IMG/VR virus record: IMGVR_UViG_2537561979_000003
DNA length: 64,000 bases
Direction: 5' to 3' (one strand)
DNA from: a virus
Taxonomy: Duplodnaviria > Heunggongvirae > Uroviricota > Caudoviricetes
Shown here: positions 3,589-41,959 of the stretch, piece after piece
Numbering within the stretch: the stretch's first letter is position 1
Layout: each line of letters begins with the position of its first letter
Translations under genes and position numbers: made by a program
The notes under the pieces: model-generated
Database searches by the model: none
Seen by the model: only the letters and a program-made list of their open reading frames with translations
What the model was told of the DNA's origin: nothing

Positions 3589-3589
3589 C

Positions 3590-5509
3590 ATGGAACAGTT
3601 CAATATCAATAAAGGGGTGACGATCAAGCCTGGGCTTGACGTGCTTCCCCCGCCAGTGACTGATGATGAATATCGCGCATTAATGGCCGGTGAGGACCGC
3701 TATCTGATGACGGAATCCAACACCCTGGAGGAAATCGAGGCTACGTTCTTCTATGACACGCCGATCCACTGGTGTGCTACGGATTTACTGGAGGCGATTA
3801 GTTCTACTCGTTTGCAGTTACACCGGACCATGCAGGCATTTGTCCGGGCATTGAACCAGAAGCTGAATGGTACCGGAATCTCTGCGGGGAGTGATAAAAC
3901 GGGGGATGTGGCCCAGAGCGGCGCGCGCGCGATCGGCGGTGCTGAAATTGGCCGGGCACGGAACGTTAACGGGCTGCCGGTCCTGCCAGCCATTATTCCG
4001 CTCAGTGATGGTCAGACTATCAGCATTCTGTTTCATAGCCCGACAGCGGAAAACCGGATCACCAATAGCGATACGCTGGTTGCTTTCCAGTTCTTACTGA
4101 ATAAAAAAGACGTTACTCACACCGTTGCTCCGATGAGTGGACGTGATATGACGCTGGCGCAGGTCACCATGAAACTTGCCAACCTTGCAGAGAAAAACTC
4201 GGCAAAATTCCAGCGTGCGCAGAAGAAGAAAAAAGCCCTGGTTGATGAAATAACCCAACTACAGGCTGACAGTGACCAGAAAGAGGATGCCATGAGCGAC
4301 CTCGCGGATCAGGTGGCAGCGGTAGAAGGGCAGAAGGTAGATCTGGAGCAGAAAATTAACGCTGTTGCATCGGAAGCGGATTCTCTTTATGAAGAGAATG
4401 AGCGTTTGCAGACGGAGATTGATCAGCTCAATCGCACAGGTGGGCGCGATACCATTGATCCAGCGGGGATGACTGGTGGGCACTCGCGCGCGCTGACGGA
4501 TCGCCTTGCCAGTATCAAAAATCGTATGCATATGAACGGGGAAGTGACGCTCAGTAATGGAGCATCAATGAAGCAATTCATTGAGGACGGCGAAGGGTAT
4601 ATCCAGTTAACCGATTCGGATGGCAGCGTGTACATGATCAAGGCTAAATCCATACAGGGTGTGGACATGGCAGATGCGATCGGCAAGCTGTTTAAAGCCT
4701 ATAAAGCGGGTAATGTATCGGAATATCTGGTCCAACCAGAAGAACATAAACCGGAAAACGTCGAACCTGAACCAGCGGAGGATACCGGTAGCTCTTCGCC
4801 TGAACCAGAAGTCTCTGTAGGTGCATATCGATATGCCTTGCAAATGCGTCCGGCGGCCCCTGGCGCAATACCTGAAGGCAACAAAGCAATTCTGCCGCGC
4901 CCTGATGAAGGTGACCCGTATTATGAATATGCACGCTACGGCATTGTTACTTACGATACCCCGCTTTCTGATCAGCAAATGAGTGAGTACGACCTGAAGT
5001 TATTGCCTCGCGAGGATTCTTTCGACTTCCTGGCGAAGACACTTACTAATGGTCCGTTTGGCAAATATGCACAAAAAGCTCTGGAGCTGGCCACCAGCTC
5101 ACCAGACGAGTTCCGCGTAATGCTGAAAACTCAGTTTCAAAAAACTTTCCCCAATATTGCGTTTCCTGGGGGCGCTGGCATCGAGAAAATGGTGCAGAGC
5201 ATGATCAATGCATTGCAGGCCGAAGTCGGTGAGATTACTCAACCAGAACCGGTCCCGGCACAGCCTGATGAAACGGTTAGCGAAGCAGATGCAGAGGCTA
5301 ATAAAGCCATTGAATATCTCAATAGCGTGATGGATATGCAAAGCACTGACATGGCGGAGATCCGTAACGCCCGGGGCAATGTCCGGGAAGCGATTGTTGC
5401 CCTTCAGGCTGCCGGACGTTTTGAGGAAAACGAAGAGCTGGTTAACGGTGCTGCTCGCCACCTGGCTGATCTGCTGGTAGCAATCCAGAAAGCGGGGGTA
5501 GCGGCATGA
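3590..5509 (+). CDS. darA: DarA-like capsid internal / antirestriction protein, 639 aa
   Basis: Size and position match P1 DarA (about 70 kDa); AGGA SD 7 nt upstream; coiled-coil-rich. Confidence 0.65.
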   Translation: MEQFNINKGVTIKPGLDVLPPPVTDDEYRALMAGEDRYLMTESNTLEEIEATFFYDTPIHWCATDLLEAISSTRLQLHRTMQAFVRALNQKLNGTGISAGSDKTGDVAQSGARAIGGAEIGRARNVNGLPVLPAIIPLSDGQTISILFHSPTAENRITNSDTLVAFQFLLNKKDVTHTVAPMSGRDMTLAQVTMKLANLAEKNSAKFQRAQKKKKALVDEITQLQADSDQKEDAMSDLADQVAAVEGQKVDLEQKINAVASEADSLYEENERLQTEIDQLNRTGGRDTIDPAGMTGGHSRALTDRLASIKNRMHMNGEVTLSNGASMKQFIEDGEGYIQLTDSDGSVYMIKAKSIQGVDMADAIGKLFKAYKAGNVSEYLVQPEEHKPENVEPEPAEDTGSSSPEPEVSVGAYRYALQMRPAAPGAIPEGNKAILPRPDEGDPYYEYARYGIVTYDTPLSDQQMSEYDLKLLPREDSFDFLAKTLTNGPFGKYAQKALELATSSPDEFRVMLKTQFQKTFPNIAFPGGAGIEKMVQSMINALQAEVGEITQPEPVPAQPDETVSEADAEANKAIEYLNSVMDMQSTDMAEIRNARGNVREAIVALQAAGRFEENEELVNGAARHLADLLVAIQKAGVAA

Positions 5510-10536: not shown

Positions 10537-11316
10537 ATCGCTTTCCACTTCTTCCGTGGTGTTTTCTTGCAGTTCTGTTAATGCAGCACGACATAGGTTC
10601 CGGGCATTGGCTATAGCCACACTTTTGACTTCATCCGTCATCGTGCAGGTAATGTACTGATCGAGTTCTTCAGCGCGGATGATGCTTTTGCCAATCAGAA
10701 ACTGTATTTGCCAGAGCAGATCGGCATCCATAATCAGAATTTCTGCCGGGCCTTCAGGGCCAGCCGGGAAGGAAACATAAGACTGTTTGCCCAGGCCGAC
10801 AACTCGACAACTTGCTTCAAGAATTGCGCGCTTGAGGTCTGACTTTATAACGGAAACAGGTTGATTTTCACCAGTGATTACGCCGTTGACATGGAAAGGC
10901 ATGTAGCTTGAAATACGCTCCACTTTCCACACGCCAGCAAGCGATCCTTCATGCAGCACAATGGGGGTAACCGCGAGTTTCATCTCACCATATAGCTGCT
11001 GGCAGATAGCTGGATTGCTGAATACATCTAAAGGCTCACATTCAAACAGCGGCGCAATCTGCATGAGGTCCATCATGGTCATCCCTGGGGTACGAGCAGT
11101 AATGAATCTGCGCATACCAGTATCCATTGCGCTCCAGATTGCTACACCATGCTTTTTGCTCACTTCTTCAGTAAAGCCAAGGTGGCACATGATGGTTTTT
11201 TCGATAGCCAGATCAGAGATCGAAACCTTTTCGCCAGGCACACCATCATTATTGATGGTCACTTCGACACTCTGACCATTACGCAGGCGGTATTGAATTG
11301 CTTTAGTATTTTCCAC
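10534..11316 (-). CDS. hypothetical protein
   Basis: 260-aa ORF, no recognisable motif. Confidence 0.5.
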   Translation of the reverse strand: MENTKAIQYRLRNGQSVEVTINNDGVPGEKVSISDLAIEKTIMCHLGFTEEVSKKHGVAIWSAMDTGMRRFITARTPGMTMMDLMQIAPLFECEPLDVFSNPAICQQLYGEMKLAVTPIVLHEGSLAGVWKVERISSYMPFHVNGVITGENQPVSVIKSDLKRAILEASCRVVGLGKQSYVSFPAGPEGPAEILIMDADLLWQIQFLIGKSIIRAEELDQYITCTMTDEVKSVAIANARNLCRAALTELQENTTEEVESD

Positions 11317-11322
11317 GTTAAA

Positions 11323-12000
11323 TCACTCCACTACAAACCAGTCACATGCCAGTAAGTCGCCTACAGAAGGAACCCACGGAACAACTACACCTTGTGCATT
11401 TTTTAAGGCGAAATAAGCACCATACGGAACGAGGTCGCCGGGGAAATATCCCTTAATGGCTTCCATTCGTGCCGGGTACTGTCCTTCAGGAACCAGCCAG
11501 CAGAATTGGTTTTCGCCGTTCCACCCGCGTCGAGCAACTTTCTTGCCATCCTTCAGCCACATCAGCGCGTCAGAAAAGTCGGCTGCTTCAAGGTCGATTT
11601 CTTCTTGTGTGGTAATGATGCCACTGGCAGCAATAGTTACGTCCCTGGCTGTAATGAATGTCACCCCATTGTGACCTTCAATACTGAGCGATACCCCATT
11701 TTCGAAGAAGTCGTTAGTCCGACTAAAGCCTTCTTCAAATGTTTTTTCTGGTGAATAGGACAGAGATCCGTCCTCATAAGCGACCAGATATCCGCCAATT
11801 TCTGGTCGGTGTTTTTGCAAAAACATTTTATCAACATGGACTTTTACCCCTTCTGGCTCAACGACTTCGATGTTGCAAAAAAGGACCACATCCATTAGGG
11901 CGATAATTTCGATATCTTTGATTTTTGAGGCGCGAACTGTTTTATGGCTTTTGTATTTTGGAAGTGCCGTCAAAAGCTCTTTCGTTGTCATGTTATTCAT
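11323..12000 (-). CDS. hypothetical protein; start moved to the internal ATG
   Basis: AGAGGA SD 6 nt upstream of the ATG for MNNMTTKELL; the longer track ORF lacks an SD. Confidence 0.5.
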   Translation of the reverse strand: MNNMTTKELLTALPKYKSHKTVRASKIKDIEIIALMDVVLFCNIEVVEPEGVKVHVDKMFLQKHRPEIGGYLVAYEDGSLSYSPEKTFEEGFSRTNDFFENGVSLSIEGHNGVTFITARDVTIAASGIITTQEEIDLEAADFSDALMWLKDGKKVARRGWNGENQFCWLVPEGQYPARMEAIKGYFPGDLVPYGAYFALKNAQGVVVPWVPSVGDLLACDWFVVE

Positions 12001-12197
12001 AGTCTTTCCTCTGCTTAAAACCTGATGTATTGCGCCTTCAGGTGGGGCAGGAATGTTTTCCCACCAGCGAAAGCAATATCTCGGGGTGTTCTTTTCGTGA
12101 AAAGCGCGTGCCATTGCCAACTTTGGCGTTTGTTTGCGAGTTCGTGCTTTTGTCGGCGTCTGGACCACCGCTTTTCTTTCAGTCGTTTTTTACACAT

Positions 12198-16501: not shown

Positions 16502-19500
16502 ATGAACAAGCTATCTATGGGGGTGTTTCGCTGTTCAAGTGTCAGCGAAATATTGAAATACATTAGGGCAATAACATCTCACCGAGCGCCGATTAAATAC
16601 GGCGTGGAAAAGGTGGAAGGCAAAAGCTATGACCGACTGCGCCGGGAGGCGAATCAGAAGGCGATAGATTTGCTTAATTCGCTGGTGGACGGCGCGACAC
16701 TGACAGATGAACAGCGCCAGATCCTGGCTGGGTACACCGGTGAAGGCGGCATTGGCGGGTCCGTCTCCGAATATTACACACCAAAGCCGATCGCTGAAGG
16801 TGTCTGGGAGATCATGAAGCTCTACGGCGCGGACGTAGGTAACACTCTGGAACCATCGGCGGGCACCGGCGTTTTTAATGAGACAAAACCGGTTGGTACG
16901 GTGATGACCGCGACTGAGATCAGCAGTGTTTCCGGTCGTATAAACCAGCTGTTGCACCCGGAAGACAGCGTACAGATTTCTCCGTTCGAACAACTGGCTG
17001 TAAGCACGCCTAACGATTCATTCGACCATGTTGTGGGTAACGTTCCGTTCGGTGGTCGTGATAACACACGCAACATCGATAAGCCTTACGCAGAAGAAAC
17101 GGACATGGGTTCTTACTTCATGCTCCGCATGCTGGACAAGATAAAGCCAGGCGGATTCATGTGCGTGATTGTGCCGCCGTCCATTGTTTCAGGTTCAAAC
17201 ATGAAGCGGTTACGCCTGCGCCTATCACGGAAAGCTGAATTTCTTGGTGCTCACCGCTTGCCTACCGGTACTTTTGACGCAAACGGGACCAGTACAGTCG
17301 TTGATGTGGTGCTGATGCGCAAACATCCGGCAGAGATGGCTGAGAAAATCCCCCTGGTGGATGAAAGCACTCTTGAATCGGCAAATGTGCTTTGGCCAAC
17401 GTTTATTTCTGGCAAGTGGTTTGAAAAGGACGGTCGCCGGTTTGTTCATGGCACCCAGGAGAAGGGATTCCAGGGGCGTATTGAGGTTCGTGCCGACGGG
17501 CAGATTGATAACCAGGCTCTTAAAGCGAAGCTGATTCATCGTTTCGAAAGTCGTATCGACTGGTCTTTGCTCAATATGGCTGAACCGTCACCGACCGCAG
17601 ACGTTGTTGATGAAGGGGAAATGCGCCTGATTAATGGCGTATGGCAAAAATATGCTGGTGGTCGCTGGATTGAATCTGATGCAGGGAAGGAGCTGAAGAT
17701 TGATGTTGCCAGTTATGGCGCGGACAGCTGGGAGGCTCTTCAGCGTAACCTGACTACAACAGAAGGCCGTCTCGGTATGACATTTACCCAGATGGCAAAT
17801 GTCCGCGATAAGTACACCACATCAATCAGCGACGATATGGTGCAGCTGGTGGACTGGATTAACAGCCAGCCTGAAAAATACCGTGAACGCTTGTATCGCG
17901 GGGCGATGATTGGCCGGATGTTAATTGAATATCAGGACATGAAGGCCGCCGGGCATAGTGCTGAACAAATCGAACAGCAGCGCCTTTCTCTGGTATCCCG
18001 TTTGCAGGCAGAGATTGACCGTTTTGGTAACCCCGGTCGCGGTCCGATAGCGAAATTATCGGGGAGCGGTGCGCGCGCCTGGTTTGCTTTCCGTGGTGCA
18101 ATTAAGCTGGATGGCACTATTTCTGACGAGCTGACAGGAAAACTGGTTACGCATGATTCCAGCGCCAGTTATGACTCCACCAGCTATCAGGACACCCTGC
18201 GTTATCTCTACAGTGATCTCACTCGCGATCCAATCCAGCTCGATGATTTCCGCCTTGCGTTTACCGGCGAACTGCCAGCCAGTGATGACGAGTTGCTTAA
18301 TTTATTGGCCAGCACCCCTGGCATTGCGGTTTCACCGTATGGCGGGATTGTTCCGTTCGCCCGCGCCACCAGCGGCGACATTAACGAGATAGTGGCACCA
18401 AAACAGGAATTCCTTGCCACACTCCCCGACGGTCCAGTAAAGAACAACGTCCTTAATCAGCTGGCAGCGATCGAAGAGAAGCGCATCAAGACGCCAGCAG
18501 AGAATATCCGCTTTAAGCTCAATAGCCGTTGGTTCGACCGTTCCGTCATTCTGGAATTTTTGCAGGAAAACGGCTATCCGGATCTTCGCTATGTGCAGTC
18601 AGTGCAGCTGGAAGGCGACGAAATGGTTTCTGACACCTATCACGGTGGTGATGGTCTGTTCGTCGGGCACCGATACGGTGTCGTCCAGCGCAAGGATAAA
18701 GAAACAGGCGAGATCCGCTACGAGTGGGACCGTAAATCAGGTGAAAACGCGACCGGGTTCCCGGCACAGCTGGAAAAGTATCTCAATGGTGCGCGTATCG
18801 GTGGCAAAGATAGCGCGACGGCGAACGGCTACCGCGAGCAGATGGCACTGCTTGAGGACCAGTTCAATAAGTGGATCAAGACGCACGATCGCTACGATGA
18901 ACTGGTTGCCAAATACAACGATGTGTTCAATAGCAATATCCCGTATGAACACTCTGGCGATCCGCTTGGGTTGAAGGGATTAAGCGGTAAGCGCCAGCCA
19001 TTTGATTACCAGAATAGCGAAGTGCGCCGACTGTCCGAAGATGGGCGCGGCATCCTGGGCTTCGGCACCGGGCTGGGTAAAACTACGACCGCGCTGGCGC
19101 TTGAAGCGTTCAACTATGAGAACGGTCGCTCCACCCGTACTGCGTATGTAGTGCCTAAATCAGTGCTGGAAAACTGGTATTACGAAGCAAAAGAATTCCT
19201 GAGTGAAGAGGCATTCAGTAACTACCTGTTCGTCGGTCTTGATGTGCTGATGGATGGCGATCAGATTCGCCAGGTGCCGGTGCTCGATGAGAACGGTAAA
19301 CCTGTCGTTGGTGCAGATGGCACTCCCGTTATGCGCGATGCCCTTAAGCTGGCAGATGAAGCCACTATCACGGCGCGGATGAACGCGATCCCGCACTCAA
19401 ATTACCGTGCAGTCGTGTTTACCAAAGAACAATACGCCCGCATTCCGCTACGTGATGACACCGTAGATGAGCATGCACAGGATATGCTTTATGACTTCGT

Positions 19501-22500
19501 TGCCGCCGGGCGCGTAGCCAGCGCAATGGACTCCGACTCCCACCGCAAAGAGGCCGCGCGTCGCCGGGTATTGTCGGAGTATTCAGATACCGGCACCGAA
19601 AAAGCAGAGAAGTATCCGTACTTTGAGGATATGGGCTTCGATAGTGTGATCGCTGACGAAGGTCACAACTACCGCAATAGCTATAAAAATGGTCGCGAAG
19701 CGTCACAACTGGCCTATCTGCCCACCAGCGCGGTGGCGCAATCGGCGCGGGATATGGCAATTAAAAACGCGTACCTGATGAAAAAGAATGGTGGGCGCGG
19801 ACCGGTTCTCCTGACTGCAACGCCAGTCGTTAACACCCCGATCGATGCATACAACATGCTTTCTCATGTGCTGCCGAAGGAATACTGGCAGAAGATGGGG
19901 ATCTACGGTCCTGATGACTTCGTTAAATTCTTCGGCAAGACCAGGCTGGAAACGGTACAGAAAATCAGCGGTGAAGTTGAAGAAAAAATGGCGCTGGTGG
20001 GCTTTGAAAACCTTGATGCGCTGCGCGGCATATTCCATCGCTGGACAACGCTTAAAACGGCGGAAGACGTTAAGGATACCGTGGAGATCCCGGAACTGGA
20101 CGAGCACCAGCAGGATGCACCACTTACTGAAGAACAACTGGCGGCGTATGAAGAATTACGTCAGCAGGCGGAAGCGGCAGCAAAAGCCAACAATGGCGTA
20201 ACGACCTCGGTCAATGAAGACGGCGTGATTGAGCACGAGAAAGCCCGTCCGATCTTCTCAATAATCAGGGATATGGACCGCGTATGTACTGACATGGACC
20301 TGTACTATCGCCGGATCACCTATCGTTTCCTGCCGGAGTACGCCGATGCGGTGCAGCAGCTGGCGGACAGTTTTCCTAAACAAGCCACCAGCGAAGACGA
20401 CGACAGTGATGATTCAATCACGCAGCAATCGCAATACTCCCTGATAGATAAGGGCGAGTTTATTCAGTTGCAGGTTCCGGAAGCGTTCGAGCAGGAAGTG
20501 AATAAGCGCCTGGCCAGGTTTGGCATTGACGAACAGACCGTAACTCACCCCGTTACGCCGAAATACGCGAAGCTGATCGCCACGCTGAAGGAGTTTTTCC
20601 CGGAAGGGAAGCAAATCATCTTCACCGACGAAAAAACGCAGCACCAGAAGCTCAAACGCATTATCTGCAATGCTCTTAACCTTGAACCTTCAAAGGTAGG
20701 GATCCTGAATGCTCAGACGGTTGCCGAGGCAGGTAAAACCGGTAAGAAACTGAAAGCGGTTAAACCGCCGAAAGAGTTACCGGATGAACCAACAGATGCA
20801 CAGATAGCGAAATACAACGAGCAAATGGCTCTGTATGACGCCTATATCGCGCAGCAAAATGAAATGTCGCTGGGTGGGCTGGAAAAGATTGCTGCCGACT
20901 TCCAGGAGGGCCGGACTCCGATCATCATCTGCAACAAAAAGGCAGAGGTGGGTATCAACCTGCATCGAGGAACGACTGACATCCATCATCTGACGTTGCC
21001 ATGGACACCAGCCAGTATCGCACAGCGTAACGGTCGCGGTGCCCGAGTTGGTTCCAACCGTGCAAGCGTTCGCGTTCACTACTACTGCGGCAAGGGTTCT
21101 TTCGATGAATACCGACTGAAGACGCTGAAGCGTAAAGCAGGCTGGATCTCCGATATCCTCCGTTCAGATAAGTCAGAAATGGAGAACGCCGACGCCAACG
21201 ATATGATCGAAATGCAGATGTATACCGCTAAGGATGATGGCGAACGTCTGGCAATGATGCAGGTTCAAATGGATAAGGCGAAAGCCGCGCAACGCGCTCG
21301 CCAGAAAGAACAGGCTACTATCGACCTTCAGAACTACATCAAGGCGCAGCACGCAGCTGGCGAGGATGTGGAGGTACTTACCGCTGAATTAGAGCGAAGC
21401 AAAGCGGAACTTGAAAAGACCACCGCCGACGTCGCCAAATTCAAACAGGCGGTAATGGCCAAAGCAGCTGATAACGCAGACTGGAAAGCCCGCTGGGGTA
21501 GCGTCCATCACACAGACCGTACGTTGTTAGCACAGTATCGCGCGTCGTTGAAAAGCGCCATTCAGCGCAAGGCTAATATCTCTCAAGCCATCTCCCGCTA
21601 TGAGAAATTATTGAACCGTACTCAGAAGGCCGCGACGGATATCAAACGCCTGCGCCCGCTGGTGGAGGATGCAATAAATAAAGGCATTCTGGATGTTGAT
21701 CCTGATCTGGTTAACCATGCGAATGAGTTCCTTGTTATCGGCGATCGCTCATGGCGTGTAGGCCAATACTACGATTGTGCCGGTGATATCGTTCGCATTA
21801 AGTCGCTGGACTTCGACAGCCAGCGCGCAGACGTGGAGATCATCTTTACCTTCAAAGGCACCAAATCGGGTAACTGGGATGTGAAGACGCTGGATAAACA
21901 GGTTGATGTAACTCCCGATGAAGATGCTGTTATGCAGAAAATCAGTGGTGGCGTCTCCATCGCCGGGATTAACGACATCATTTCCTGTGACGATTTCTAC
22001 CGTTTCCAGCAGCGCGGCATGATCAAAATAACTGACTCGTACGGCGTTCAGACTACAGAGTCAGGCTATAGCATTGATTTTGTTGGTACCTATACGGACC
22101 CACTGAAGCATGCGGTTTACCCGGATCGCCGTGACGGCGCGCTGAAGTCGTCAATTGCAAAATGGGTGCTTGGTATGATGTCGGAAGGGAATAACCGCCA
22201 GATCCGTTCGGCAGAAACATTCCTGGTTGAATTGTTTGGCTCCAATTATGGCGATGTAATCGCGTCATACGGAGATACGCTATCCCCTGAAGCAATTCAG
22301 GAGAAAATAGCGGATGCGATCGCCAGAATGCCGGAGAAAACAAGCCAGGGGGCTACTCGTAACGGGGATTCTGAACTTGAGGTCACCAATGCCATTTTCG
22401 GTACCCATGAGTTCCGGGCGTCAGATTATGAGATCACCACAGCACAGTTTGGCACCATTGGCATTTACAGCAATAAAGACGAGATCAAGCAGGCAATGGA

Positions 22501-23269
22501 CGCTGCAAGCGCGCGTATTGCAGCAGAACGGAAAGCCAATCTGAATCATGCAGTCGCCGCGCTGACTCAATCGTGGGTAACAGCAATCAGGGAGGCCGCC
22601 ACCACAGGGAAAATCACACCTGCAATAGCGGATGTCGTAAACAACGGCTCTAAATTTATGGATGCCTATCAAATGGATGCGGTGAAGTTGCCATCAGCCT
22701 ATGGTCAACTCAGCTATCGCATGACCTACAACCTGGTATCAATGTTTTCCGACCTTGCCATCCTTGGGCTGGTGGATCTTAACGAGGTTACGCCGGAATT
22801 GCTCAGCATGCGCAAGAATCATGTGGAGATATTGCAGAGAATTAACACGGTTCTTGCCGGGCGCACCGATGAAGAGAAACAGGCCGACGCTGATCGGATA
22901 AACCTAACCCTTGGCAACATCACGGAGGAAGAGATTGCCGCCAGAAACGAGAAACAAGAAGAGTTATCATCAATACAGGGTGATGCCACCAGCATAGCTC
23001 AGTCTCTTGGTCTGAATTATCGCGTATCCACCGCCGACCTGAAGATGATGTACGCACCAAAATTCGCCGCTGGCGAGGTATTTGGGCTTCAGGAAGCCTC
23101 AGGCATGAAAGGCGTTCTTTTCCGTGCGAAAGACGCAATCAAGGCGAAATTCGGCGCTCGCTGGCTGCCAGCGAAGGCGAAGAACAGCGATTTCCCGGGT
23201 AACTGGTGGATTATCGAGACAAAACACAACGTGGCGGACGTTCTGGCCGTCATCCAACAATACGCATAA
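16502..23269 (+). CDS. darB: DarB antirestriction protein: N6-adenine methyltransferase fused to a superfamily-2 helicase, 2255 aa
   Basis: MTase motif VVGNVPFGG (NPPF-like); helicase Walker A GFGTGLGKTT and DEAH-type VIADEGHNYRN; size matches P1 DarB. Confidence 0.85.
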   Translation: MNKLSMGVFRCSSVSEILKYIRAITSHRAPIKYGVEKVEGKSYDRLRREANQKAIDLLNSLVDGATLTDEQRQILAGYTGEGGIGGSVSEYYTPKPIAEGVWEIMKLYGADVGNTLEPSAGTGVFNETKPVGTVMTATEISSVSGRINQLLHPEDSVQISPFEQLAVSTPNDSFDHVVGNVPFGGRDNTRNIDKPYAEETDMGSYFMLRMLDKIKPGGFMCVIVPPSIVSGSNMKRLRLRLSRKAEFLGAHRLPTGTFDANGTSTVVDVVLMRKHPAEMAEKIPLVDESTLESANVLWPTFISGKWFEKDGRRFVHGTQEKGFQGRIEVRADGQIDNQALKAKLIHRFESRIDWSLLNMAEPSPTADVVDEGEMRLINGVWQKYAGGRWIESDAGKELKIDVASYGADSWEALQRNLTTTEGRLGMTFTQMANVRDKYTTSISDDMVQLVDWINSQPEKYRERLYRGAMIGRMLIEYQDMKAAGHSAEQIEQQRLSLVSRLQAEIDRFGNPGRGPIAKLSGSGARAWFAFRGAIKLDGTISDELTGKLVTHDSSASYDSTSYQDTLRYLYSDLTRDPIQLDDFRLAFTGELPASDDELLNLLASTPGIAVSPYGGIVPFARATSGDINEIVAPKQEFLATLPDGPVKNNVLNQLAAIEEKRIKTPAENIRFKLNSRWFDRSVILEFLQENGYPDLRYVQSVQLEGDEMVSDTYHGGDGLFVGHRYGVVQRKDKETGEIRYEWDRKSGENATGFPAQLEKYLNGARIGGKDSATANGYREQMALLEDQFNKWIKTHDRYDELVAKYNDVFNSNIPYEHSGDPLGLKGLSGKRQPFDYQNSEVRRLSEDGRGILGFGTGLGKTTTALALEAFNYENGRSTRTAYVVPKSVLENWYYEAKEFLSEEAFSNYLFVGLDVLMDGDQIRQVPVLDENGKPVVGADGTPVMRDALKLADEATITARMNAIPHSNYRAVVFTKEQYARIPLRDDTVDEHAQDMLYDFVAAGRVASAMDSDSHRKEAARRRVLSEYSDTGTEKAEKYPYFEDMGFDSVIADEGHNYRNSYKNGREASQLAYLPTSAVAQSARDMAIKNAYLMKKNGGRGPVLLTATPVVNTPIDAYNMLSHVLPKEYWQKMGIYGPDDFVKFFGKTRLETVQKISGEVEEKMALVGFENLDALRGIFHRWTTLKTAEDVKDTVEIPELDEHQQDAPLTEEQLAAYEELRQQAEAAAKANNGVTTSVNEDGVIEHEKARPIFSIIRDMDRVCTDMDLYYRRITYRFLPEYADAVQQLADSFPKQATSEDDDSDDSITQQSQYSLIDKGEFIQLQVPEAFEQEVNKRLARFGIDEQTVTHPVTPKYAKLIATLKEFFPEGKQIIFTDEKTQHQKLKRIICNALNLEPSKVGILNAQTVAEAGKTGKKLKAVKPPKELPDEPTDAQIAKYNEQMALYDAYIAQQNEMSLGGLEKIAADFQEGRTPIIICNKKAEVGINLHRGTTDIHHLTLPWTPASIAQRNGRGARVGSNRASVRVHYYCGKGSFDEYRLKTLKRKAGWISDILRSDKSEMENADANDMIEMQMYTAKDDGERLAMMQVQMDKAKAAQRARQKEQATIDLQNYIKAQHAAGEDVEVLTAELERSKAELEKTTADVAKFKQAVMAKAADNADWKARWGSVHHTDRTLLAQYRASLKSAIQRKANISQAISRYEKLLNRTQKAATDIKRLRPLVEDAINKGILDVDPDLVNHANEFLVIGDRSWRVGQYYDCAGDIVRIKSLDFDSQRADVEIIFTFKGTKSGNWDVKTLDKQVDVTPDEDAVMQKISGGVSIAGINDIISCDDFYRFQQRGMIKITDSYGVQTTESGYSIDFVGTYTDPLKHAVYPDRRDGALKSSIAKWVLGMMSEGNNRQIRSAETFLVELFGSNYGDVIASYGDTLSPEAIQEKIADAIARMPEKTSQGATRNGDSELEVTNAIFGTHEFRASDYEITTAQFGTIGIYSNKDEIKQAMDAASARIAAERKANLNHAVAALTQSWVTAIREAATTGKITPAIADVVNNGSKFMDAYQMDAVKLPSAYGQLSYRMTYNLVSMFSDLAILGLVDLNEVTPELLSMRKNHVEILQRINTVLAGRTDEEKQADADRINLTLGNITEEEIAARNEKQEELSSIQGDATSIAQSLGLNYRVSTADLKMMYAPKFAAGEVFGLQEASGMKGVLFRAKDAIKAKFGARWLPAKAKNSDFPGNWWIIETKHNVADVLAVIQQYA

Positions 23270-23302: not shown

Positions 23303-23743
23303 ATGGCCACACTATCTGATACAATAAAACCGAATAAAACATATCTTGAGGCGGTACTCCGTACAGCGTTGTTAGGAAAGACAGAAGACGAATACGTTGA
23401 TTTCTTCCTGTCAGGGCTACGCGGGCGATTACTGAAAAATCCCCGCCTGTACCGCAGCTATGGTCCATACTGGCCGGAAATTAAAAAATTATTACTGGAG
23501 CGCGGTTATGGTAATTTCGGTCGTCTCGTTGACCGTGACGTTCGCAAAATTTACCGTTATGACCGCCCGGCGCTAACACTCATAGCCGCGACGCTCTACA
23601 GCCAGGAGCGTTTTGATAATGGTCAGATATACTCAGCCTGGCATTTACTGCCAGTGCCTGAAGAAGTTGACGACCAGGACTATGAGTTTGAGTCTTACGA
23701 TTTGGAAGTTGAAGCCTTGGCACAGGCTGGAGAGAAAACTTGA
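23303..23743 (+). CDS. ulx: Ulx-like protein, by position
   Basis: 146-aa ORF between darB and the lxc-like ORF. Confidence 0.4.
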   Translation: MATLSDTIKPNKTYLEAVLRTALLGKTEDEYVDFFLSGLRGRLLKNPRLYRSYGPYWPEIKKLLLERGYGNFGRLVDRDVRKIYRYDRPALTLIAATLYSQERFDNGQIYSAWHLLPVPEEVDDQDYEFESYDLEVEALAQAGEKT

Positions 23744-23988
23744 AAAAGCGATACTACACAGTAAAGCATGGGACGCTACGAGCATTACAAGAGTTTGCTG
23801 ACAAGCATAACGTTGAGGTGCGCAGGGAAGGGGGAAGTAAAGCTCTGCGCATGTACCGTCCGGACGGGAAATGGCGTACGGTCGTCGATTTCAAAACTAA
23901 CAGTGTTCCCCAGGGCGTCCGCGATCGGGCATTCGAAGAATGGGAGCAGATCATCATAGATAACGCATTGCTCCTGAATGCTGATTAA
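23740..23988 (+). CDS. lxc: Lxc-like small protein (modulator of C1 repression), by position and size
   Basis: 82-aa ORF overlapping the upstream stop; followed by a weak hairpin. Confidence 0.4.
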   Translation: MKKRYYTVKHGTLRALQEFADKHNVEVRREGGSKALRMYRPDGKWRTVVDFKTNSVPQGVRDRAFEEWEQIIIDNALLLNAD

Positions 23989-24027
23989 ACTTTCCGCCCT
24001 TTTGCCCGGTCTATCGCCGGGCATCTT

Positions 24028-24669
24028 TCAGAGATAATTACCTTTACCTGTCAATTCCCCTTGTGGTACTTGTTTTTGCGCCAGTGTTTGGGTTCCGCGA
24101 ATTATGTTAATCAGAGGGCTTAGTAACGATGGTTCCTGGCGTGCCTCAACTTCTCCAGCCATTGCCCTGATGTAGTCGGAGCTTGCAACGTTGTTGTATT
24201 CCGTTGCGAAGCAGCATAACAACGTCAGAACGTGCTCTGTCGTTATTTCGCTCCAGTTGATGTTGAAAAATTCATCGCCTTTTTTATCGTGTTCGGAATC
24301 GAAGATGCTTTGGTGGAGGATGTATTTGCCGGATTCCTTGCGCGGTAACTTGATCGCTTTCTGGCGTTCCAGCTCCTTGTAAATCTGCATTGCTTCAATC
24401 AGTACCGGCCTGCCGTTCATGAAGGGATCGCGCAACCTTACACGCTGGCCAACTCGACCAGTAATAAAGCTGTTTTCCTCTTCCACCAGCACGATAAAAC
24501 CCTTTTCCTCTTTTTCTCGCAATTCGCGCAGCAGCTGGAGTTCCATATCGCGGCGGCGTTCAGGGTAGCTGGTCCGCTCAGCCATTATTAGCTCATTGTT
24601 GATCCATGCGGCAGTCATTGACGCCGGTTTGCCGACGCTCATCGAAACAACGCATATTTTCTTATCCAT
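24028..24669 (-). CDS. hypothetical protein (Mat-like by position)
   Basis: ORF adjacent to ref; start set at MDKKICVV with a GGGG SD. Confidence 0.35.
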   Translation of the reverse strand: MDKKICVVSMSVGKPASMTAAWINNELIMAERTSYPERRRDMELQLLRELREKEEKGFIVLVEEENSFITGRVGQRVRLRDPFMNGRPVLIEAMQIYKELERQKAIKLPRKESGKYILHQSIFDSEHDKKGDEFFNINWSEITTEHVLTLLCCFATEYNNVASSDYIRAMAGEVEARQEPSLLSPLINIIRGTQTLAQKQVPQGELTGKGNYL

Positions 24670-24857
24670 AGCGCCCCTACAAAAAAGAAAAGCCACCAGC
24701 GGCGGCTTAGCAATACAACTGAAGGTAGCGCCCGGTACTCAGACTGTGCCGTCCATGGAATATTTGAAAAGGGATCCATCCGTACCGGGCATGTGATGAT
24801 TCTGACTGAAGTCACTTGTCAGTTGTCAATTATTTCAGATTAAAAATAATATATTTA

Positions 24858-25418
24858 TTAGTGCATGATGTTTGCCATCTCATAGGCGTCAGCCAGCAAC
24901 TCCATCTCTGACTTGTTCAGCAAGGTGAATTCTTTCTTGCCTCCAACCACACCATCGGCATGAACAGGGACCAGCCAGGGGTATTTTTCTCTTACTTCAG
25001 CCGGTGCTGCATGCTGGTGGTGCCATCTACAAAGGGGCAATTGCTTTTTGTGACAACCCGGCGCGGTACGACCGGAGATATGGTGCAGAGATACCTCTCC
25101 AGATATTACTCCATGCATGTAGCAGGCAATGCAGGGGAGAGCGCCAAGAGCATTGGCGATGCGCCGTTCCTCCGCCGTTGGTGTTCTCCCCTTCAAGCCA
25201 CGAGATTTTATTTTTACCGCGCTTTTCCGCGTTTTGCTGGCTGGTGGGCGCTCTTTCTGTTTAGCGATACGGCGGTCGATAGAATCCCGCATTTTCTGAT
25301 ATTGCGATTCTCGCCAAGCGGGGTCAGCCAACTTTTCCCGTTGCCGAGCGATCGCTCGTTCTCTGGCTGCCTTCTGCCACTCGCGGCGCTGTTCAAGTTT
25401 TTGTTCGATTGTTTTCAT
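24858..25418 (-). CDS. ref: Ref recombination-enhancement HNH endonuclease, 186 aa
   Basis: HNH zinc-binding core CIACYMHGVISGEVSLHHISGRTAPGCHKKQLPLCRWHHQ; basic N-terminus; size matches P1 Ref. Confidence 0.85.
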   Translation of the reverse strand: MKTIEQKLEQRREWQKAARERAIARQREKLADPAWRESQYQKMRDSIDRRIAKQKERPPASKTRKSAVKIKSRGLKGRTPTAEERRIANALGALPCIACYMHGVISGEVSLHHISGRTAPGCHKKQLPLCRWHHQHAAPAEVREKYPWLVPVHADGVVGGKKEFTLLNKSEMELLADAYEMANIMH

Positions 25419-25595: not shown

Positions 25596-25668
25596 CTTCT
25601 TGATTGATTGGATGCGGAATACAAACCCGCTCTTTTGTGCAGCCTGGCTCCTTGCCAGGCTTTTTTTA
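25596..25668 (+). ncRNA. candidate small RNA (promoter-like element to intrinsic terminator)
   Basis: TATACT -10 at 25589-25594 with TTCACT 15 bp upstream; terminator agcctggc-tcctt-gccaggct plus T7 at 25641-25668; the 5' end carries TGATTGATTGG. Confidence 0.25.
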
Positions 25669-25977
25669 TTTCATCATGGAAGCTGTTAACGCTTTGGATC
25701 TTGCTGAACTGATTGAAAGGGCATTGTTTACCTTACCCAGGAGTTCGCCAAATTCCACCATCACTCTAGTAAGCCCGCGCCGCGCTTCCTCCTCCGTTGC
25801 ATTCATCACAAAATGTTCAGCACTCCGCATGCTTTTAACGGGGAACGCAACAGATATCGAGTCGATATCAGGCATCCTATCGCTCAACTTTACGGTGACA
25901 ATGACAGATGGTGACTGAATTTGAGAGCTTACAGACAGCACCACATATTTTCCGTCTATTTTGAAATCCTTCCGCAT
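25666..25977 (-). CDS. hypothetical protein between ref and cre (cra/hxr region)
   Basis: 103-aa ORF with an operator-like site upstream. Confidence 0.4.
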   Translation of the reverse strand: MRKDFKIDGKYVVLSVSSQIQSPSVIVTVKLSDRMPDIDSISVAFPVKSMRSAEHFVMNATEEEARRGLTRVMVEFGELLGKVNNALSISSARSKALTASMMK

Positions 25978-26027: not shown

Positions 26028-27059
26028 CTAATCGCCATCTTCCAGCAGGCGCACCATTGCCCCTGTTTCACTATCCAGGTTACGGATATAGTTCATGACA
26101 ATATTTACATTGGTCCAGCCACCAGCTTGCATGATCTCCGGTATTGAAACTCCAGCGCGGGCCATATCTCGCGCGGCTCCGACACGGGCACTGTGTCCAG
26201 ACCAGGCCAGGTATCTCTGACCAGAGTCATCCTTAGCGCCGTAAATCAATCGATGAGTTGCTTCAAAAATCCCTTCCAGGGCGCGAGTTGATAGCTGGCT
26301 GGTGGCAGATGGCGCGGCAACACCATTTTTTCTGACCCGGCAAAACAGGTAGTTATTCGGATCATCAGCCACACCAGAGACAGAAATCCATCGCTCGACC
26401 AGTTTAGTTACCCCCAGGCTAAGTGCCTTCTCTACACCTGCGGTGCTAACCAGTGTTTTCGTTCTGCCAATATGGATTAACATTCTCCCACCGTCAGTAC
26501 GTGAGATATCTTTAACCCTGATCCTGGCAATTTCGGCTATACGTAACAGGGTGTTATAAGCAATCCCCAGAAATGCCAGATTCCGTATATCCTGGCAGCG
26601 ATCGCTATTTTCCATGAGTGAACGAACCTGGTCGAAATCAGTGCGTTCGAACGCCAATGCCTGTTTTGCACGTTCACCGGCATCAACGTTTTCTTTTCGA
26701 ATCCGCCGCATGACCAGTGAAACAGCATTGCTGTCACTTGGTCGTGGCAGCCCGGACCGACGATGAAGCATGTTTAGCTGGCCCAAATGTTGCTGGATAG
26801 TTTTTACTGCCAGACCGCGCGCCTGAAGATATAGAAGATAATCGCGAACATCTTCAGGTTCTGCGGGAAACCACTTCCGGTTATTCAACTTGCACCATGC
26901 CGCCCACGACCGGCAAACGGACAGAAGCATTTTCCAGGTATGCTCAGAAAACGCCTGGCGATCCCTGAACATGTCCATCAGGTTCTTGCGAACCTCATCA
27001 CTCGTTGCATCGACCGGTAATGCAGGCAAATTTTGGTGTACGGTCAGTAAATTGGACAT
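26028..27059 (-). CDS. cre: Cre site-specific tyrosine recombinase, 343 aa
   Basis: MSNLLTVHQNLPALPVDATSDEVRKNLMDMFRDRQAFSEHTWKMLLSVCRSWAAWCKLNNRKWFPAEPEDVRDYLLYLQARGLAVKTIQQHLGQLNMLHRRSGLPRPSDSNAVSLVMRRIRKENVDAGERAK... ending MVRLLEDGD matches Cre. Confidence 0.98.
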   Translation of the reverse strand: MSNLLTVHQNLPALPVDATSDEVRKNLMDMFRDRQAFSEHTWKMLLSVCRSWAAWCKLNNRKWFPAEPEDVRDYLLYLQARGLAVKTIQQHLGQLNMLHRRSGLPRPSDSNAVSLVMRRIRKENVDAGERAKQALAFERTDFDQVRSLMENSDRCQDIRNLAFLGIAYNTLLRIAEIARIRVKDISRTDGGRMLIHIGRTKTLVSTAGVEKALSLGVTKLVERWISVSGVADDPNNYLFCRVRKNGVAAPSATSQLSTRALEGIFEATHRLIYGAKDDSGQRYLAWSGHSARVGAARDMARAGVSIPEIMQAGGWTNVNIVMNYIRNLDSETGAMVRLLEDGD

Positions 27060-27892: not shown

Positions 27893-28102
27893 ATGGCTTT
27901 CATTCAACCAACCATCGACGACGTTAGACATTGCTCTAACGCTTTATCTGTAGACCCTGCCGAAACCGACGCTGCCCGCGCCATTGCTGAACACTACTCA
28001 AAGATATCCAATCAGGAGTACCGCATCACCCAAGACGACCTTGATGATCTCACTGACACAATCGAATATCTCATGGCAACTAACCAGTTAGACTCACAAT
28101 AA
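27893..28102 (+). CDS. coi: Coi (C1 inactivator), 69 aa
   Basis: 69-aa acidic ORF immediately upstream of c1 with GAGG SD; size and position as P1 coi. Confidence 0.8.
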   Translation: MAFIQPTIDDVRHCSNALSVDPAETDAARAIAEHYSKISNQEYRITQDDLDDLTDTIEYLMATNQLDSQ

Positions 28103-28212
28103 ATGCACTAATAAATCTATTATTTTTGTTTGATCCCTCTATAATATAGGTCAGTAATGACCGGTTTTCTCAGCCGGGCGTTATTGACCATGTCAATTCT
28201 GGAGGAGGATCA

Positions 28213-29064
28213 ATGATAAATTATGTCTACGGCGAACAACTGTACCAGGAGTTCGCCAGCTTCAGGGATCTCTTTCTAAAAAAAGCTGTTGCACGCGCCC
28301 AACACGTTGATACAGCCAGCGACGGTCGTCCTGTACGCCCGGTTGTCGTTCTACCGTTCAAAGAAACTGACAGCATTCAGGCTGAAATTGATAAATGGAC
28401 TTTAATGGCGCGGGAACTGGAACAGTACCCAGACCTCAATATCCCAAAGACTATTTTATATCCAGTGCCTAACATCCTTCGCGGTGTGCGTAAGGTTACA
28501 ACTTATCAGACAGAAGCTGTGAACAGCGTCAACATGACCGCTGGCCGCATTATTCATCTGATTGATAAGGACATTCGCATCCAAAAAAGCGCGGGGATCA
28601 ATGAACACAGTGCGAAATACATAGAGAACCTGGAAGCAACAAAAGAGCTAATGAAGCAGTACCCGGAGGATGAAAAATTCCGTATGCGCGTACACGGCTT
28701 TAGCGAAACAATGCTGCGCGTCCACTACATTTCCAGTAGCCCTAACTACAATGATGGTAAATCAGTTAGTTACCATGTGCCACTGTGTGGCGTGTTTATC
28801 TGCGATGAAACTCTCCGTGATGGAATTATCATCAACGGTGAATTCGAAAAAGCAAAATTTAGCCTTTATGACTCCATAGAACCGATCATCTGCGACCGCT
28901 GGCCGCAAGCAAAAATATATCGCCTGGCAGATATTGAAAATGTAAAAAAACAAATTGCCATCACTCGCGAAGAGAAAAAGGTTAAGTCAGCCGCATCAGT
29001 TACGCGCAGCCGTAAAACCAAGAAGGGGCAGCCAGTAAACGACAACCCCGAAAGCGCGCAATAA
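28213..29064 (+). CDS. c1: C1 repressor of lysis, 283 aa
   Basis: 283 aa, GGAGGAGG SD; position between coi and the packaging genes; cognate operators dispersed through the window. Confidence 0.9.
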   Translation: MINYVYGEQLYQEFASFRDLFLKKAVARAQHVDTASDGRPVRPVVVLPFKETDSIQAEIDKWTLMARELEQYPDLNIPKTILYPVPNILRGVRKVTTYQTEAVNSVNMTAGRIIHLIDKDIRIQKSAGINEHSAKYIENLEATKELMKQYPEDEKFRMRVHGFSETMLRVHYISSSPNYNDGKSVSYHVPLCGVFICDETLRDGIIINGEFEKAKFSLYDSIEPIICDRWPQAKIYRLADIENVKKQIAITREEKKVKSAASVTRSRKTKKGQPVNDNPESAQ

Positions 29065-29096
29065 ATTATGCCCGGCATCAACCGGGCATTCTTCCA

Positions 29097-30209
29097 TTAT
29101 TCAGCCGCCACCGGTTTTAACAAGCCAGCATCTAGCAGTTTACGCGTCAACCACTGCTGGCCTTTACCCGTTAATTGAGGCGTCAACCGTATCTGGTAGC
29201 CATCTTCATCATCCAGCACCACTTCTTTCACCGTGAAATACCCCGCGTTGATGTACTGCTGGAACGGCACATTTTTACGTCCACCGGACGCTATCAGGAT
29301 GCCGTTCTCCCGTAACCAGACAAACAGCGCGTTTTGCTTAAGTCCAACAACCTTTGCAAAATTCCCAATCAGGATCCCTTTAGCTACTGATACCCGGTCG
29401 GCAAAATCGACTTTAGGAGCGGCGGCCACCAGCTGCTGATTTAGCTGGTGGGCTTTCTGTTCCAGAAGCTGCTTTTGTTCAGCCAGTTCGGCAGCTAGGC
29501 GCAGAGCTTCTGGAAGCGTCTGGGGGATTGCAACCGGTTGCTGTTCTTTTTGCCGGAAGTAGCTGTCTTCCAGTTTTTCAAAGAATGCCCATGCTTCATT
29601 TGTGTCCACGATCTTAGACATGCGTGCAGCGCCGCGCTCTGTCCAGAGTGTAAGGCTTCTGGCGTTCTTACCAACAGAGTAACTTCCGGTTACTCTGTTC
29701 TTAAATTCTCTTAATTTTAAACCAGTTAGAAGAAAGTAATGCTTACCTTCTTCAAAGCGGTCAAGGTTGCGAGACAAATTGTTGCGAATATTGGCTTCAT
29801 CGACCCCATACCCTCTAGCAAGAGTTTCGGTTGTCACGACACGTACTCCCTGCCATTCCAGAACGGGAATTTCATCCGGCTGATTCTGAACAACCACCAG
29901 TTCCGATTCCTGAACTGAAGGTGCATAAATTTTTTCTGATTTAACGTTAGTTGCTTTCATTCTGTGTGCCTCCTTGCGTGCTTCGGCTGCGACGGTTGCG
30001 TAATTCAGATGCCCCTGTTCGAGCAGGTATTCGCGGATATCAGACAGCAGGATACGGTGAACCGCGTTCTTGTCCTTTCTCCGGTAAAGTTGTTTGGTGA
30101 TCATGAAGTAGTTGGCAATAACGCCAGGTATATCCCTGGTACTGATACAGGCAGTGTGCTGTTCAATTGCCTCGATCATCTCTTCACGGGTAACTAACGA
30201 TGTTCTCAT
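29097..30209 (-). CDS. antirepressor-like protein (ORF6N-type N-domain plus KilA-C-type C-domain), 370 aa
   Basis: Central block VVTTETLARGYGVDEANIRNNLSRNLDRFEEGKHYFLL and C-terminal DFADRVSVAKGILIGNFAKVVGLKQNALFVWLRENGIL resemble phage Ant/KilAC antirepressors; start overlaps the stop of an upstream 73-codon ORF. Confidence 0.7.
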   Translation of the reverse strand: MRTSLVTREEMIEAIEQHTACISTRDIPGVIANYFMITKQLYRRKDKNAVHRILLSDIREYLLEQGHLNYATVAAEARKEAHRMKATNVKSEKIYAPSVQESELVVVQNQPDEIPVLEWQGVRVVTTETLARGYGVDEANIRNNLSRNLDRFEEGKHYFLLTGLKLREFKNRVTGSYSVGKNARSLTLWTERGAARMSKIVDTNEAWAFFEKLEDSYFRQKEQQPVAIPQTLPEALRLAAELAEQKQLLEQKAHQLNQQLVAAAPKVDFADRVSVAKGILIGNFAKVVGLKQNALFVWLRENGILIASGGRKNVPFQQYINAGYFTVKEVVLDDEDGYQIRLTPQLTGKGQQWLTRKLLDAGLLKPVAAE

Positions 30210-30427
30210 AGTCCCTCCTGAGCAGAAGCGTTAACAGGGAGGCACCAGTAACTGAGAGAATTGCGTGAATCAGTGGAAAAACGGGCAGAGAAAATACATG
30301 GGGCGTCAGGAAGCTGAGAACGTGCCTCATCTTCTGTCGGTGCAATAACGAAGTGATAGTGACGTTTTTGGCAGGAGTAAAAGCGCCAGATAAATTCAGG
30401 ATGAGCAGGGGTAGGGATAGTAGCCAC
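30206..30427 (-). CDS. Icd-like 73-codon ORF translationally coupled to the antirepressor (GTG start)
   Basis: GGAGG SD 8 nt upstream of GTG; stop overlaps the antirepressor ATG (cTATGAga). Confidence 0.4.
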   Translation of the reverse strand: MATIPTPAHPEFIWRFYSCQKRHYHFVIAPTEDEARSQLPDAPCIFSARFSTDSRNSLSYWCLPVNASAQEGL

Positions 30428-30429
30428 AA

Positions 30430-30766
30430 TGGCAGCCTCCTTTTGCTAATTTAAGGAGCTACCGCGTGAGGTCTCAATCTCAATGGCGGTAGCACTGACT
30501 GGGTTGAGACTACCGGCGCAAAAGGGAACCGGCCTGCCTTTCGGCAGCCCAGCCAGCACTACCATTGATCTCTGAGCTAAACGCTACGTATGGCTGTGCG
30601 ATGGCATGACACAAAAAAAGACGCTTTTGGCGTCTGTGTCGCCTTTTGCATTATCCGGGGTCTCAATCCCGGCACCCGTTTTAATGAGGTGCCTGATAAG
30701 CATAAACCGAAAATGCCTCAAGGCGCAAGAGGTCAGGTTCAATGTAACATCGGCAGTTAAAAAACA
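30430..30766 (-). promoter_or_regulatory. structured leader region with alternative-pairing elements and an internal intrinsic terminator
   Basis: Minus-strand hairpins ccggg-AUUGAGAC-cccgg and cuaccgc-...UUGAGAUUGAGAC...-gcgguag, an upstream complementary GUCUCAA segment, and terminator agacgc-caaaa-gcgtct plus T7 (plus coordinates about 30618-30645). Confidence 0.4.
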
Positions 30767-30783
30767 CAATTTATTAGAGCAAA
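30767..30783 (-). promoter_or_regulatory. C1 operator-like site at the head of the antirepressor leader
   Basis: Minus strand TTTGCTCTAATAAATTG, 15/17 to consensus. Confidence 0.55.
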
Positions 30784-30786
30784 TAT

Positions 30787-32271
30787 TCATTCATTAAGCC
30801 ATGCCAGAGCTTCATCAACCTGCGCTTCGTCTTCGACGCTAAGCACTTCATCCTGGGGAACATAATCCGCCAGCATAGCGAAACAATATGTATCCCAATG
30901 GTCTGGTGAGTGCAGGTTGAGTTTTTTCTTCATATCCTCCTTACTCATCACCTTCCATTGACCTGCGGAGTTAATCCCTACAGGGATTTTCGACGCTTCC
31001 TCAATAGTTTCATTACCCTTATCCAGTCTCATACGACCAGATTTTACGGCCTCTGCGGCTTGAACGTTGGCATAAGCACGTTTATCAAAGTACAGGCTCT
31101 TATCTTCACGGCTATGCATCTTTTTACCCCAGCGTATACGCTGTACGGTAATACCATAATACTCGTACATCAGATCCGCCGTTGCTTTACCCAGGCCATC
31201 GCCGTCTATCGCTATGGTGATATTGGGGAATCGCTCAGGATTACATTCTGCGAAAATTTTGGCGGCAAGCTGCGTTTCTGTAACGTCTGTGTATTCCAGC
31301 ATTCGATAGTTGATTACACGGCGTTTATTTCTCTGGCCGGACACCATCATGATATTGATAACGGACTTATCCCTTCCCGTGCCACCAGCAACGTCCACAC
31401 ATGCAAGCCAGCCCCATCCTTTGGCAATCTTGACTTTCCGCCGCGTTGCGCGTTCAACCTCATCACGTCCAAGAAGGAAGCCATCCTGTGATTTAGGGAA
31501 TAGGCCGCGTACCTTAATCATGTACATAGGGTTATCACGCCCACCGTACTCCGCCAGCTTCATTTTGATAAATGCTGGCGTTACCAACGGTGATTCCTCA
31601 CTGTTAAGCGTGATCGCCGTATAAACGCCATCAGGGTTACCAGGACGCTTGGCCAGTTTATGGTGTGTATCGTAGAAATAGCCGCTTGGGCGTGTAGGCT
31701 GTGACAGCAATAAGATGCGGTTATCCTGTCCGGTAAGAGCACCGGTGATGATACCGAAAGCTCTATCACTGACACCGGAGGCTTCATCGATAATATACAG
31801 AAGATGATCTGCGTGTTCACCGGCGAGAGCTTCTTCACTTCCCAGACGAAAGCCCTTCGGTACTACAGTCCATACACCTTTACCAGTAACCTCATAGAAA
31901 GCGGTTTCTGTCAGAACAAAATAATCAGCAAGCCATGGAAAACGGCTGGTGGCAGTAGCCCAGTTTATCTTGATGTACTTGAATATACCGGTCATTACCT
32001 GCTGAATTTTGTTCGCAACGATAATGGCTCGGGCACCGGGATACATGATTATGAACAACATGATCATGATAGAAGTCATGTCTGATTTCCCGGTACCATG
32101 ACCAGACGAAACAGATGTCTTGCTACCCTGTTCCTGCACAGACTCAATAATCAGATCCTGCTGCCAGGTAGGTGTTTTGCCGAACAAAACATCAGCGGCC
32201 GCAATCCAGTCATAACGATATAGCGCCACCAGCTCGCGCCAACGTGGATCCGTTACGCAACTTCTGGCCAT
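30787..32271 (-). CDS. pacB: terminase large subunit PacB, 494 aa
   Basis: Terminase ATPase/nuclease fold (Walker [11 protein letters not shown]); start overlaps the pacA stop; size matches P1 PacB. Confidence 0.85.
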
Positions 32272-41639: not shown

Positions 41640-41959
41640 GCTGATTCCCCTTTCTCTGCTCTCTCCTGTCGGAACATCACTATCATCAGGTCGCCTTTTG
41701 TCGCTATCCTGGCTGTTGTACCTGGTTCAATGCGGCTAAGCTCAAATGCGTCATAGAACGCTTCTAATGCCTTCTGGCGTAGTTCCTGTTTGCGCCGTTT
41801 TTTCCACTGTTTTAGGAAAATGGAACCCAGCCATCGCCATGTACGGGACATGATGTAAAGCCAACCGAGAAGTGCCAGACCGGTATTTAGGAGCGTATCG
41901 ATCGTTATTGTCGTGTCGATATTCACTGGCTGCTTCCTTTGCGAATCTGTTCCGCCCAT
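41636..41959 (-). CDS. hypothetical small membrane protein
   Basis: 107-aa ORF with a hydrophobic segment LLNTGLALLGWLYIM. Confidence 0.35.
   Translation of the reverse strand: MGGTDSQRKQPVNIDTTITIDTLLNTGLALLGWLYIMSRTWRWLGSIFLKQWKKRRKQELRQKALEAFYDAFELSRIEPGTTARIATKGDLMIVMFRQERAEKGESA

Follow-up and report, generated by a model that had tools for sequence, protein, structure and literature searches.

A 39-bp junction in place of res and mod between the lxc and mat genes of a P1-like phage-plasmid

Introduction

In phage P1 the type III restriction-modification (R-M) genes res and mod lie between mat and lxc. The P1-like element analysed here has neither gene at that position, which raises two questions: (i) what occupies the interval instead; and (ii) whether its present form reflects a recent loss or an inherited state. 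The interval is already known to vary. It was named 'highly variable region 1' among 54 P1-like phage-plasmids (PMC9603915), and is also called variable region 1 or RD-1; res-mod was lacking in each of the three elements studied (PMC9603915; PMC6906374), and is missing or replaced in most P1-like elements (PMC9603915; PMC6906374). Those papers mostly describe replacement by other ORFs, whereas the element considered here has a version that is free of cargo.

A first-pass annotation had pointed out the missing genes and implied that their absence was unusual. The absence is correct for the DNA at hand; however, it is the majority state among P1-like elements (PMC6906374; PMC9603915), and we argue below that it very probably represents an inherited haplotype.

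Results

Gene content of the window

The DNA analysed, referred to as the window, is a 64-kb stretch (64,000 nucleotides) of a P1-like phage-plasmid that runs opposite to the standard P1 map orientation. It is equivalent to P1 from 64056 through 94800/1 to 31836, with the tail fibre genes to par/repA, about one third of the replicon, lying outside. A P1-like (Punavirus) backbone was defined by colinearity with P1 and high identity, including cre, c1, lxc, mat, darB, pacAB and dmt, and blastn of the window returned blocks of 93-99% identity in P1 order. Across 5,426 complete E. coli genomes, megablast with two 25-kb queries and one 6.9-kb query found long-stretch identity of at most 98.9%; the element is a mosaic not represented in the collections searched. 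The features relevant to the locus are as follows.

darA, 3590..5509, plus strand: 639-aa ORF in a block colinear with P1 27546-31836 (P1 darA, 27904-29823)
darB, 16502..23269, plus strand: antirestriction methyltransferase/helicase, 2255-aa ORF, 99.0% amino acid identity to P1 DarB, colinear with P1; conserved backbone beside the lxc-mat interval
ulx, 23303..23743, plus strand: 146-aa ORF, 98.6% identity to P1 Ulx
lxc, 23740..23988, plus strand: 82 codons, the first being TTG, as in P1; conserved left flank of the interval
spacer, 23989..24027, no strand: 39 bp between the lxc and mat stop codons, the entire content of the interval (empty allele)
hairpin, 24003..24023, no strand: GC-rich, between convergent lxc and mat
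mat, 24028..24669, minus strand: 213-aa conserved core, ATG at 24669; right flank of the interval
mat 3′ end, 24028..24095, minus strand: allele-specific, linked to the empty state
ref, 24858..25418, minus strand: 186 aa, 95.7% identity to P1 Ref
c8, 25666-25977, minus strand
cre, 26028-27059, minus strand: Cre 100% identical to that of P1
dmt, 59380..61644, minus strand: 754-aa ORF, colinear with P1 dmt 66412-68676

The genes darB, darA and dmt, which had been listed as retained, are indeed all found at positions colinear with P1. Together with ulx, which like darA and darB is an anti-restriction gene, they are part of the backbone and unaffected by the empty interval.

The lxc gene encodes a modulator of the C1 repressor, and mat is involved in maturation control. 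The 82-codon lxc-like ORF ending at 23988 was confirmed from the ORF listing and the sequence; after the shared TTG start its product is identical to P1 Lxc (81/81 residues), and the gene is annotated under the same name in RCS47, SJ46 and JL22. The neighbouring mat gene was correctly placed next to lxc on the other strand, but it had been said to begin 40 bp away, whereas it in fact ends there (stop codon at 24028-24030), so that lxc and mat converge on a gap of 39 bp. Both genes are intact, with normal stop codons. The mat ORF is open upstream to a GTG at 24696, and the Mat core is 96.2% identical to P1 Mat, most of the differences falling within the last 22 residues.

Upstream of the MDKK start of Mat, window 24669-24800 differs from P1 2716-2830 by 1 bp (GG in one, G in the other), which is why P1 Mat is annotated as 250 aa, starting upstream of MDKK. 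In the window, SJ46 and JL22 the upstream frame is separate, and the conserved Mat is therefore the 213-aa core. The 250-aa P1 Mat was considered as a real difference related to the interval and set aside, the 1-bp upstream change being irrelevant to it.

The junction compared with P1 and P7

The corresponding region of P1 (NC_005856) is arranged as follows.

mat, 2716-3468, plus strand
res, 3544-6456, minus strand
mod, interrupted by IS5, between res and lxc
lxc, 9750-9998, minus strand, followed by ulx and darB

The order in P7 is identical, and its mod is uninterrupted; both phages thus bear out the placement of res and mod between mat and lxc given in the first-pass annotation. The window shares with these res-mod loci (EcoP1I and EcoP7I) the flanking genes, their order and their orientation. 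The content of the slot, as we call the lxc-mat interval, is different: P1 and P7 carry res and mod there, in 6.3 and 5.1 kb, whereas in the window the res-mod interval of both is replaced by the 39-bp spacer, as the junction comparison suggested by the earlier reading makes clear. The res-mod DNA of P1 has a G+C content of 35%, compared with 49% for the window.

The breakpoints do not coincide exactly with the spacer. In a blastn comparison of the window with the whole of P1, homology ends at window 23995 (P1 9743, 7 bp beyond the lxc stop) and restarts at window 24059 (P1 3437, 31 nt within mat), so that 6.3 kb of P1 (3438-9742) correspond to 63 bp of the window (23996-24058). The last ~60 nt of mat can be aligned with P1 and are far more diverged, with the position of the stop codon unchanged. 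Both the hairpin that follows lxc and this terminal part of mat set the window apart from P1 and P7.

We also note that window 23963-23991 keeps the sequence annotated in P1 as promoter P2mod despite the absence of mod. Its -10 equivalent, TAAACT, overlaps the lxc stop codon, and the -35, which differs by one base in the window, falls within lxc. The putative promoter, if active, would fire into the lxc-mat hairpin, antisense to mat.

The intergenic hairpin

The spacer had been described as holding a weak hairpin. A hairpin is present at 24003-24023, TGCCCGGT-CTATC-GCCGGGCA, with an 8-bp stem and a 5-nt loop, but it is not notably weak: its folding energy is -15 kcal/mol on both strands, with a z-score of about -3.4, and shuffled sequences folded as well in only 2/200 and 0/200 cases. 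It is unique in the window, and no Rfam match was found in the spacer. The hairpin has the stable GC-rich stem-loop of an intrinsic terminator but not the U-tract, which is absent after the stem on both strands (UCUUUCA follows on the plus strand and AAAGGGC on the minus strand); for this reason a scan for consensus terminators did not call it. The hairpin is probably a shared transcription stop for the converging lxc and mat genes, a role that is uncertain because the U-tract is missing on either strand.

Search for res, mod and other defence genes

An EcoP1I-type system consists of a helicase-nuclease subunit, Res, and an N6-adenine methyltransferase subunit, Mod, whose gene is adjacent to res. 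The queries for tblastn were P1 Res (970 aa) and a P1 Mod rebuilt by removing IS5 (653 aa). As a control, both recovered P1's own genes, res at 100% identity. In the 64-kb window neither found a homologue, the best E-values being 1.7 for Res and 0.82 for Mod, the latter inside dmt. The earlier statement that the EcoP1I-type system is lacking accordingly stands for the window. Because about one third of the replicon lies outside, its extension to the whole element draws on relatives. In the complete 96-kb plasmid pZ1323CEC0017-3 (NZ_CP148411.1) tblastn with Res and Mod gave nothing better than E = 0.2. Among 50,697 phage records, Res matched by tblastn in P1, P7, phi456 and 813R1, and not in RCS47, SJ46, JL22 or 673R5. 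To judge from pZ1323CEC0017-3 and RCS47, which share the junction of the window, the system would be missing from the whole replicon.

A type III or other R-M system could nevertheless reside elsewhere in the replicon, in the third beyond the window. P1-like plasmids have acquired R-M genes at other hotspots, for example the type I system in pSvP1 (PMC6906374), and IS26 at the left window edge hints at further cargo nearby. We regard this as distinctly unlikely, since no Res or Mod homologue occurs in the 64 kb or in complete pZ1323CEC0017-3, RCS47 has no Res homologue, and the non-P1 window ORFs yielded no defence system with PADLOC.

The IS26 copy (117-936) is complete: its transposase (DDE_Tnp_IS240) is encoded at 169-891, and the element is bounded by the 14-bp terminal repeats GGCACTGTTGCAAA (117-130 and 923-936). 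Adjoining it is the ORF of a cin-like resolvase (174 aa, 932-1456). This arrangement suggests that IS26 has mediated a rearrangement, or that cargo is present, close to the tail-fibre inversion region just beyond the window edge.

Alternative defence cargo, which the first-pass annotation had proposed to look for, was sought with PADLOC on the 20 ORFs of the non-P1 window segments, and no defence system was found. Two matches were rejected. The first is a TnpB transposon nuclease of 402 aa and IS200/IS605 type, encoded by a 1.2-kb non-P1 insert between ddrA and ddrB (5868-7202), with OrfB_IS605 and Cas12f1-like TNB domains; its match to the Cas12f models of PADLOC merely reflects the relatedness of TnpB and Cas12. 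The second is the antirepressor, with a weak match to PDC-S05.

An extra immunity-I-like C4-icd-ant module lies between c1 and pacB (29065-30790), where P1 has only 24 bp. The module comprises antirepressor Ant (29097-30209, minus strand), a C4 antisense RNA (30482-30569, RF01695, 75 bits) and an isrK-like RNA (30614-30692). A hairpin by the ant stop codon, ATGCCCGG-CATCAA-CCGGGCAT (29067-29090), resembles the lxc-mat hairpin.

Two further segments depart from P1. At the isaA/IS1 hotspot (11313-12168) a 684-bp non-P1 insert creates a 281-aa ORF (11323-12168, minus strand), whose first ~57 residues match P1 IsaA (56/65 aligned residues identical) and whose C-terminus is a Tad2-like domain (Thoeris anti-defence 2, PF11195, E 2.5e-22); the ORF is a candidate for anti-defence cargo. 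In the second, part of the pmgT-upfO region of P1 has given way to a 3.6-kb block with no homology to P1 (39314-42941), in which an Ead/Ea22-like protein is encoded at 40339-40971 and a DUF4752 protein at 41636-41959, together with several ORFs lacking a family match; PADLOC gave no matches in this block.

Recurrence of the empty junction

The same contiguous empty junction occurs in 31 of the 688 PLSDB plasmids that have the flanks and in 35/690 E. coli genomes; about 5% of P1-like plasmids have the empty slot. P1-type res DNA was found in at most 108 PLSDB plasmids, some of which are not P1-like, and because it is so restricted, absence of res-mod is the majority state among P1-like elements.

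The closest published arrangement is that of RCS47 (NC_042128), a 115-kb P1-like phage-plasmid with blaSHV-2, in which ulx, lxc, a 39-bp spacer, mat and ref follow one another as in the window. Over 1.6 kb the identity is 98.7%, the spacers differ by a single base, and the two elements differ elsewhere in the replicon. Plasmid pZ1323CEC0017-3 is closer to the window, with 99.9% identity over the same 1.6-kb probe and a junction that is 100% identical. The window has what characterizes the RCS47-type empty allele: a 39-bp spacer with a GCCCGG/CCGGGC hairpin, and the linked mat 3′ end.

That linkage can be seen in the plasmid collection. A 72-bp probe for the mat 3′ allele (24024-24095) matched 31 PLSDB plasmids at 95.8-100% identity, a count equal to that of the empty junction. 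In pairwise flank comparisons the mat 3′ end of the window is diverged from the P1, SJ46, SIR2, GNAT and JL22 versions. It is because this mat 3′ end goes only with the empty junction that the empty form looks inherited, rather than produced by a recent deletion from P1.

The observations bear directly on whether res and mod were lost recently, by deletion from an ancestor of the P1/P7 type. Such an origin would fit with the location of res-mod in P1 and P7 at exactly the lxc-mat position, and with the similarity to P1 seen immediately beyond the lxc stop, over 7 bp and then, weakly, over a further ~35 bp. We consider it unlikely, however, and reject a recent deletion from P1 itself, because the window contains no remnants of res or mod, because P1 and P7 have a different hairpin and a different version of the last ~60 nt of mat, and because the junction and mat allele recur together in about 31 independent plasmids and in RCS47. 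Given that recurrence, the empty state may be ancestral, and any deletion of res-mod would be old and would since have spread as a haplotype. A collapsed or mis-joined contig, which would make the short junction an assembly artefact, is hardly credible: the identical junction recurs in complete plasmids assembled independently of one another, of which there are dozens, and in a phage that has been sequenced, and both lxc and mat are intact and end at normal stop codons.

Occupants of the slot in relatives

In other P1-like elements the position between lxc and mat holds a variety of genes.

P1 and P7: type III R-M
SJ46 (Salmonella phage): 373-aa RelA/SpoT protein, CapRelSJ46, a fused toxin-antitoxin
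673R5: gene related to that of SJ46, split in the record
p1_025985: 435-aa SIR2 protein
E. coli 181.1 plasmid p3: 202-aa GNAT acetyltransferase
JL22: 316-aa PIN-domain protein
pLR-64-1_1: icd-ant antirepressor module

The SJ46 protein matches PDB 7ZTB (CapRelSJ46) over its full length (E 1.4e-250) and PADLOC PDC-S33 (E 7e-87), and that of JL22 matches PIN_12 (E 3.6e-18) and, weakly, PDC-S34. The anti-phage function of CapRelSJ46 has been proven experimentally (PMC9712102), and its location between lxc and mat in SJ46 means that the slot hosts a proven anti-phage defence. The SJ46 slot and that of the window are equivalent by position, the former being filled and the latter without cargo. The icd-ant module of pLR-64-1_1 is located in the lxc-mat slot itself.

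Pairwise flank comparisons revealed that every state of the slot has a distinct GC-rich hairpin within a few bases of the lxc stop, and that the lxc stop codon itself is TAA or TGA depending on the state. The last ~60 nt of mat exist in one version in P1 and P7; all other states differ from P1/P7 and from one another.

Discussion

The properties of the junction suggest that the lxc-mat interval is a cargo slot of P1-like elements which is empty here, and that this emptiness is most likely an inherited haplotype and not a recent deletion of res-mod; we hold this reading to be very probable. The empty allele would consist of a 39-bp spacer with a single GC-rich hairpin, which probably stops both converging transcripts. 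Most likely, homologous recombination would swap each cargo along with the hairpin and the version of the last ~60 nt of mat that belong to it. The positions of the breakpoints suggest that the exchange takes place in the nearly identical flanks, namely in lxc and in the body of mat. The empty haplotype is common to RCS47 and some 30 other plasmids, most likely by inheritance, and appears to have spread among plasmids of E. coli, E. fergusonii and Salmonella.

A different scenario is that the slot is a dedicated site at which hairpin-bounded defence cassettes are exchanged by a site-directed mechanism, with the post-lxc hairpin as the recognition element and the 39-bp allele as a bare landing pad. 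The cassettes would be the type III R-M, CapRel, SIR2, PIN, GNAT and icd-ant genes. Related GCCCGG/CCGGGC stems do occur at several cassette boundaries and beside the ant module, and are compatible with such exchange; they are equally well explained as ordinary terminators, and we consider a dedicated site highly unlikely.

The absence of res-mod from this element, while correct, is already known, because the res-mod interval has been published as variable region 1 and because RCS47, with the same empty junction, is a published phage. Taken alone, the locus matters little, being one more P1-like phage-plasmid with a cargo-free version of a known variable locus. Its value is that the empty allele fixes the boundaries of the slot to the base, the left one just beyond the lxc stop and hairpin, the right one inside the final ~60 nt of mat. 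With boundaries at that resolution, the defence cargo of other P1-like elements becomes easy to extract and catalogue.

Finally, we note that the textbook P1 genome, with its res-mod genes, is atypical of its family. Lysogens of the element described here would be expected to lack restriction and modification of the EcoP1I type, as well as any addiction based on R-M. Their addiction would be expected to rely on phd-doc, which lies inside a block colinear with P1 86842-93204.
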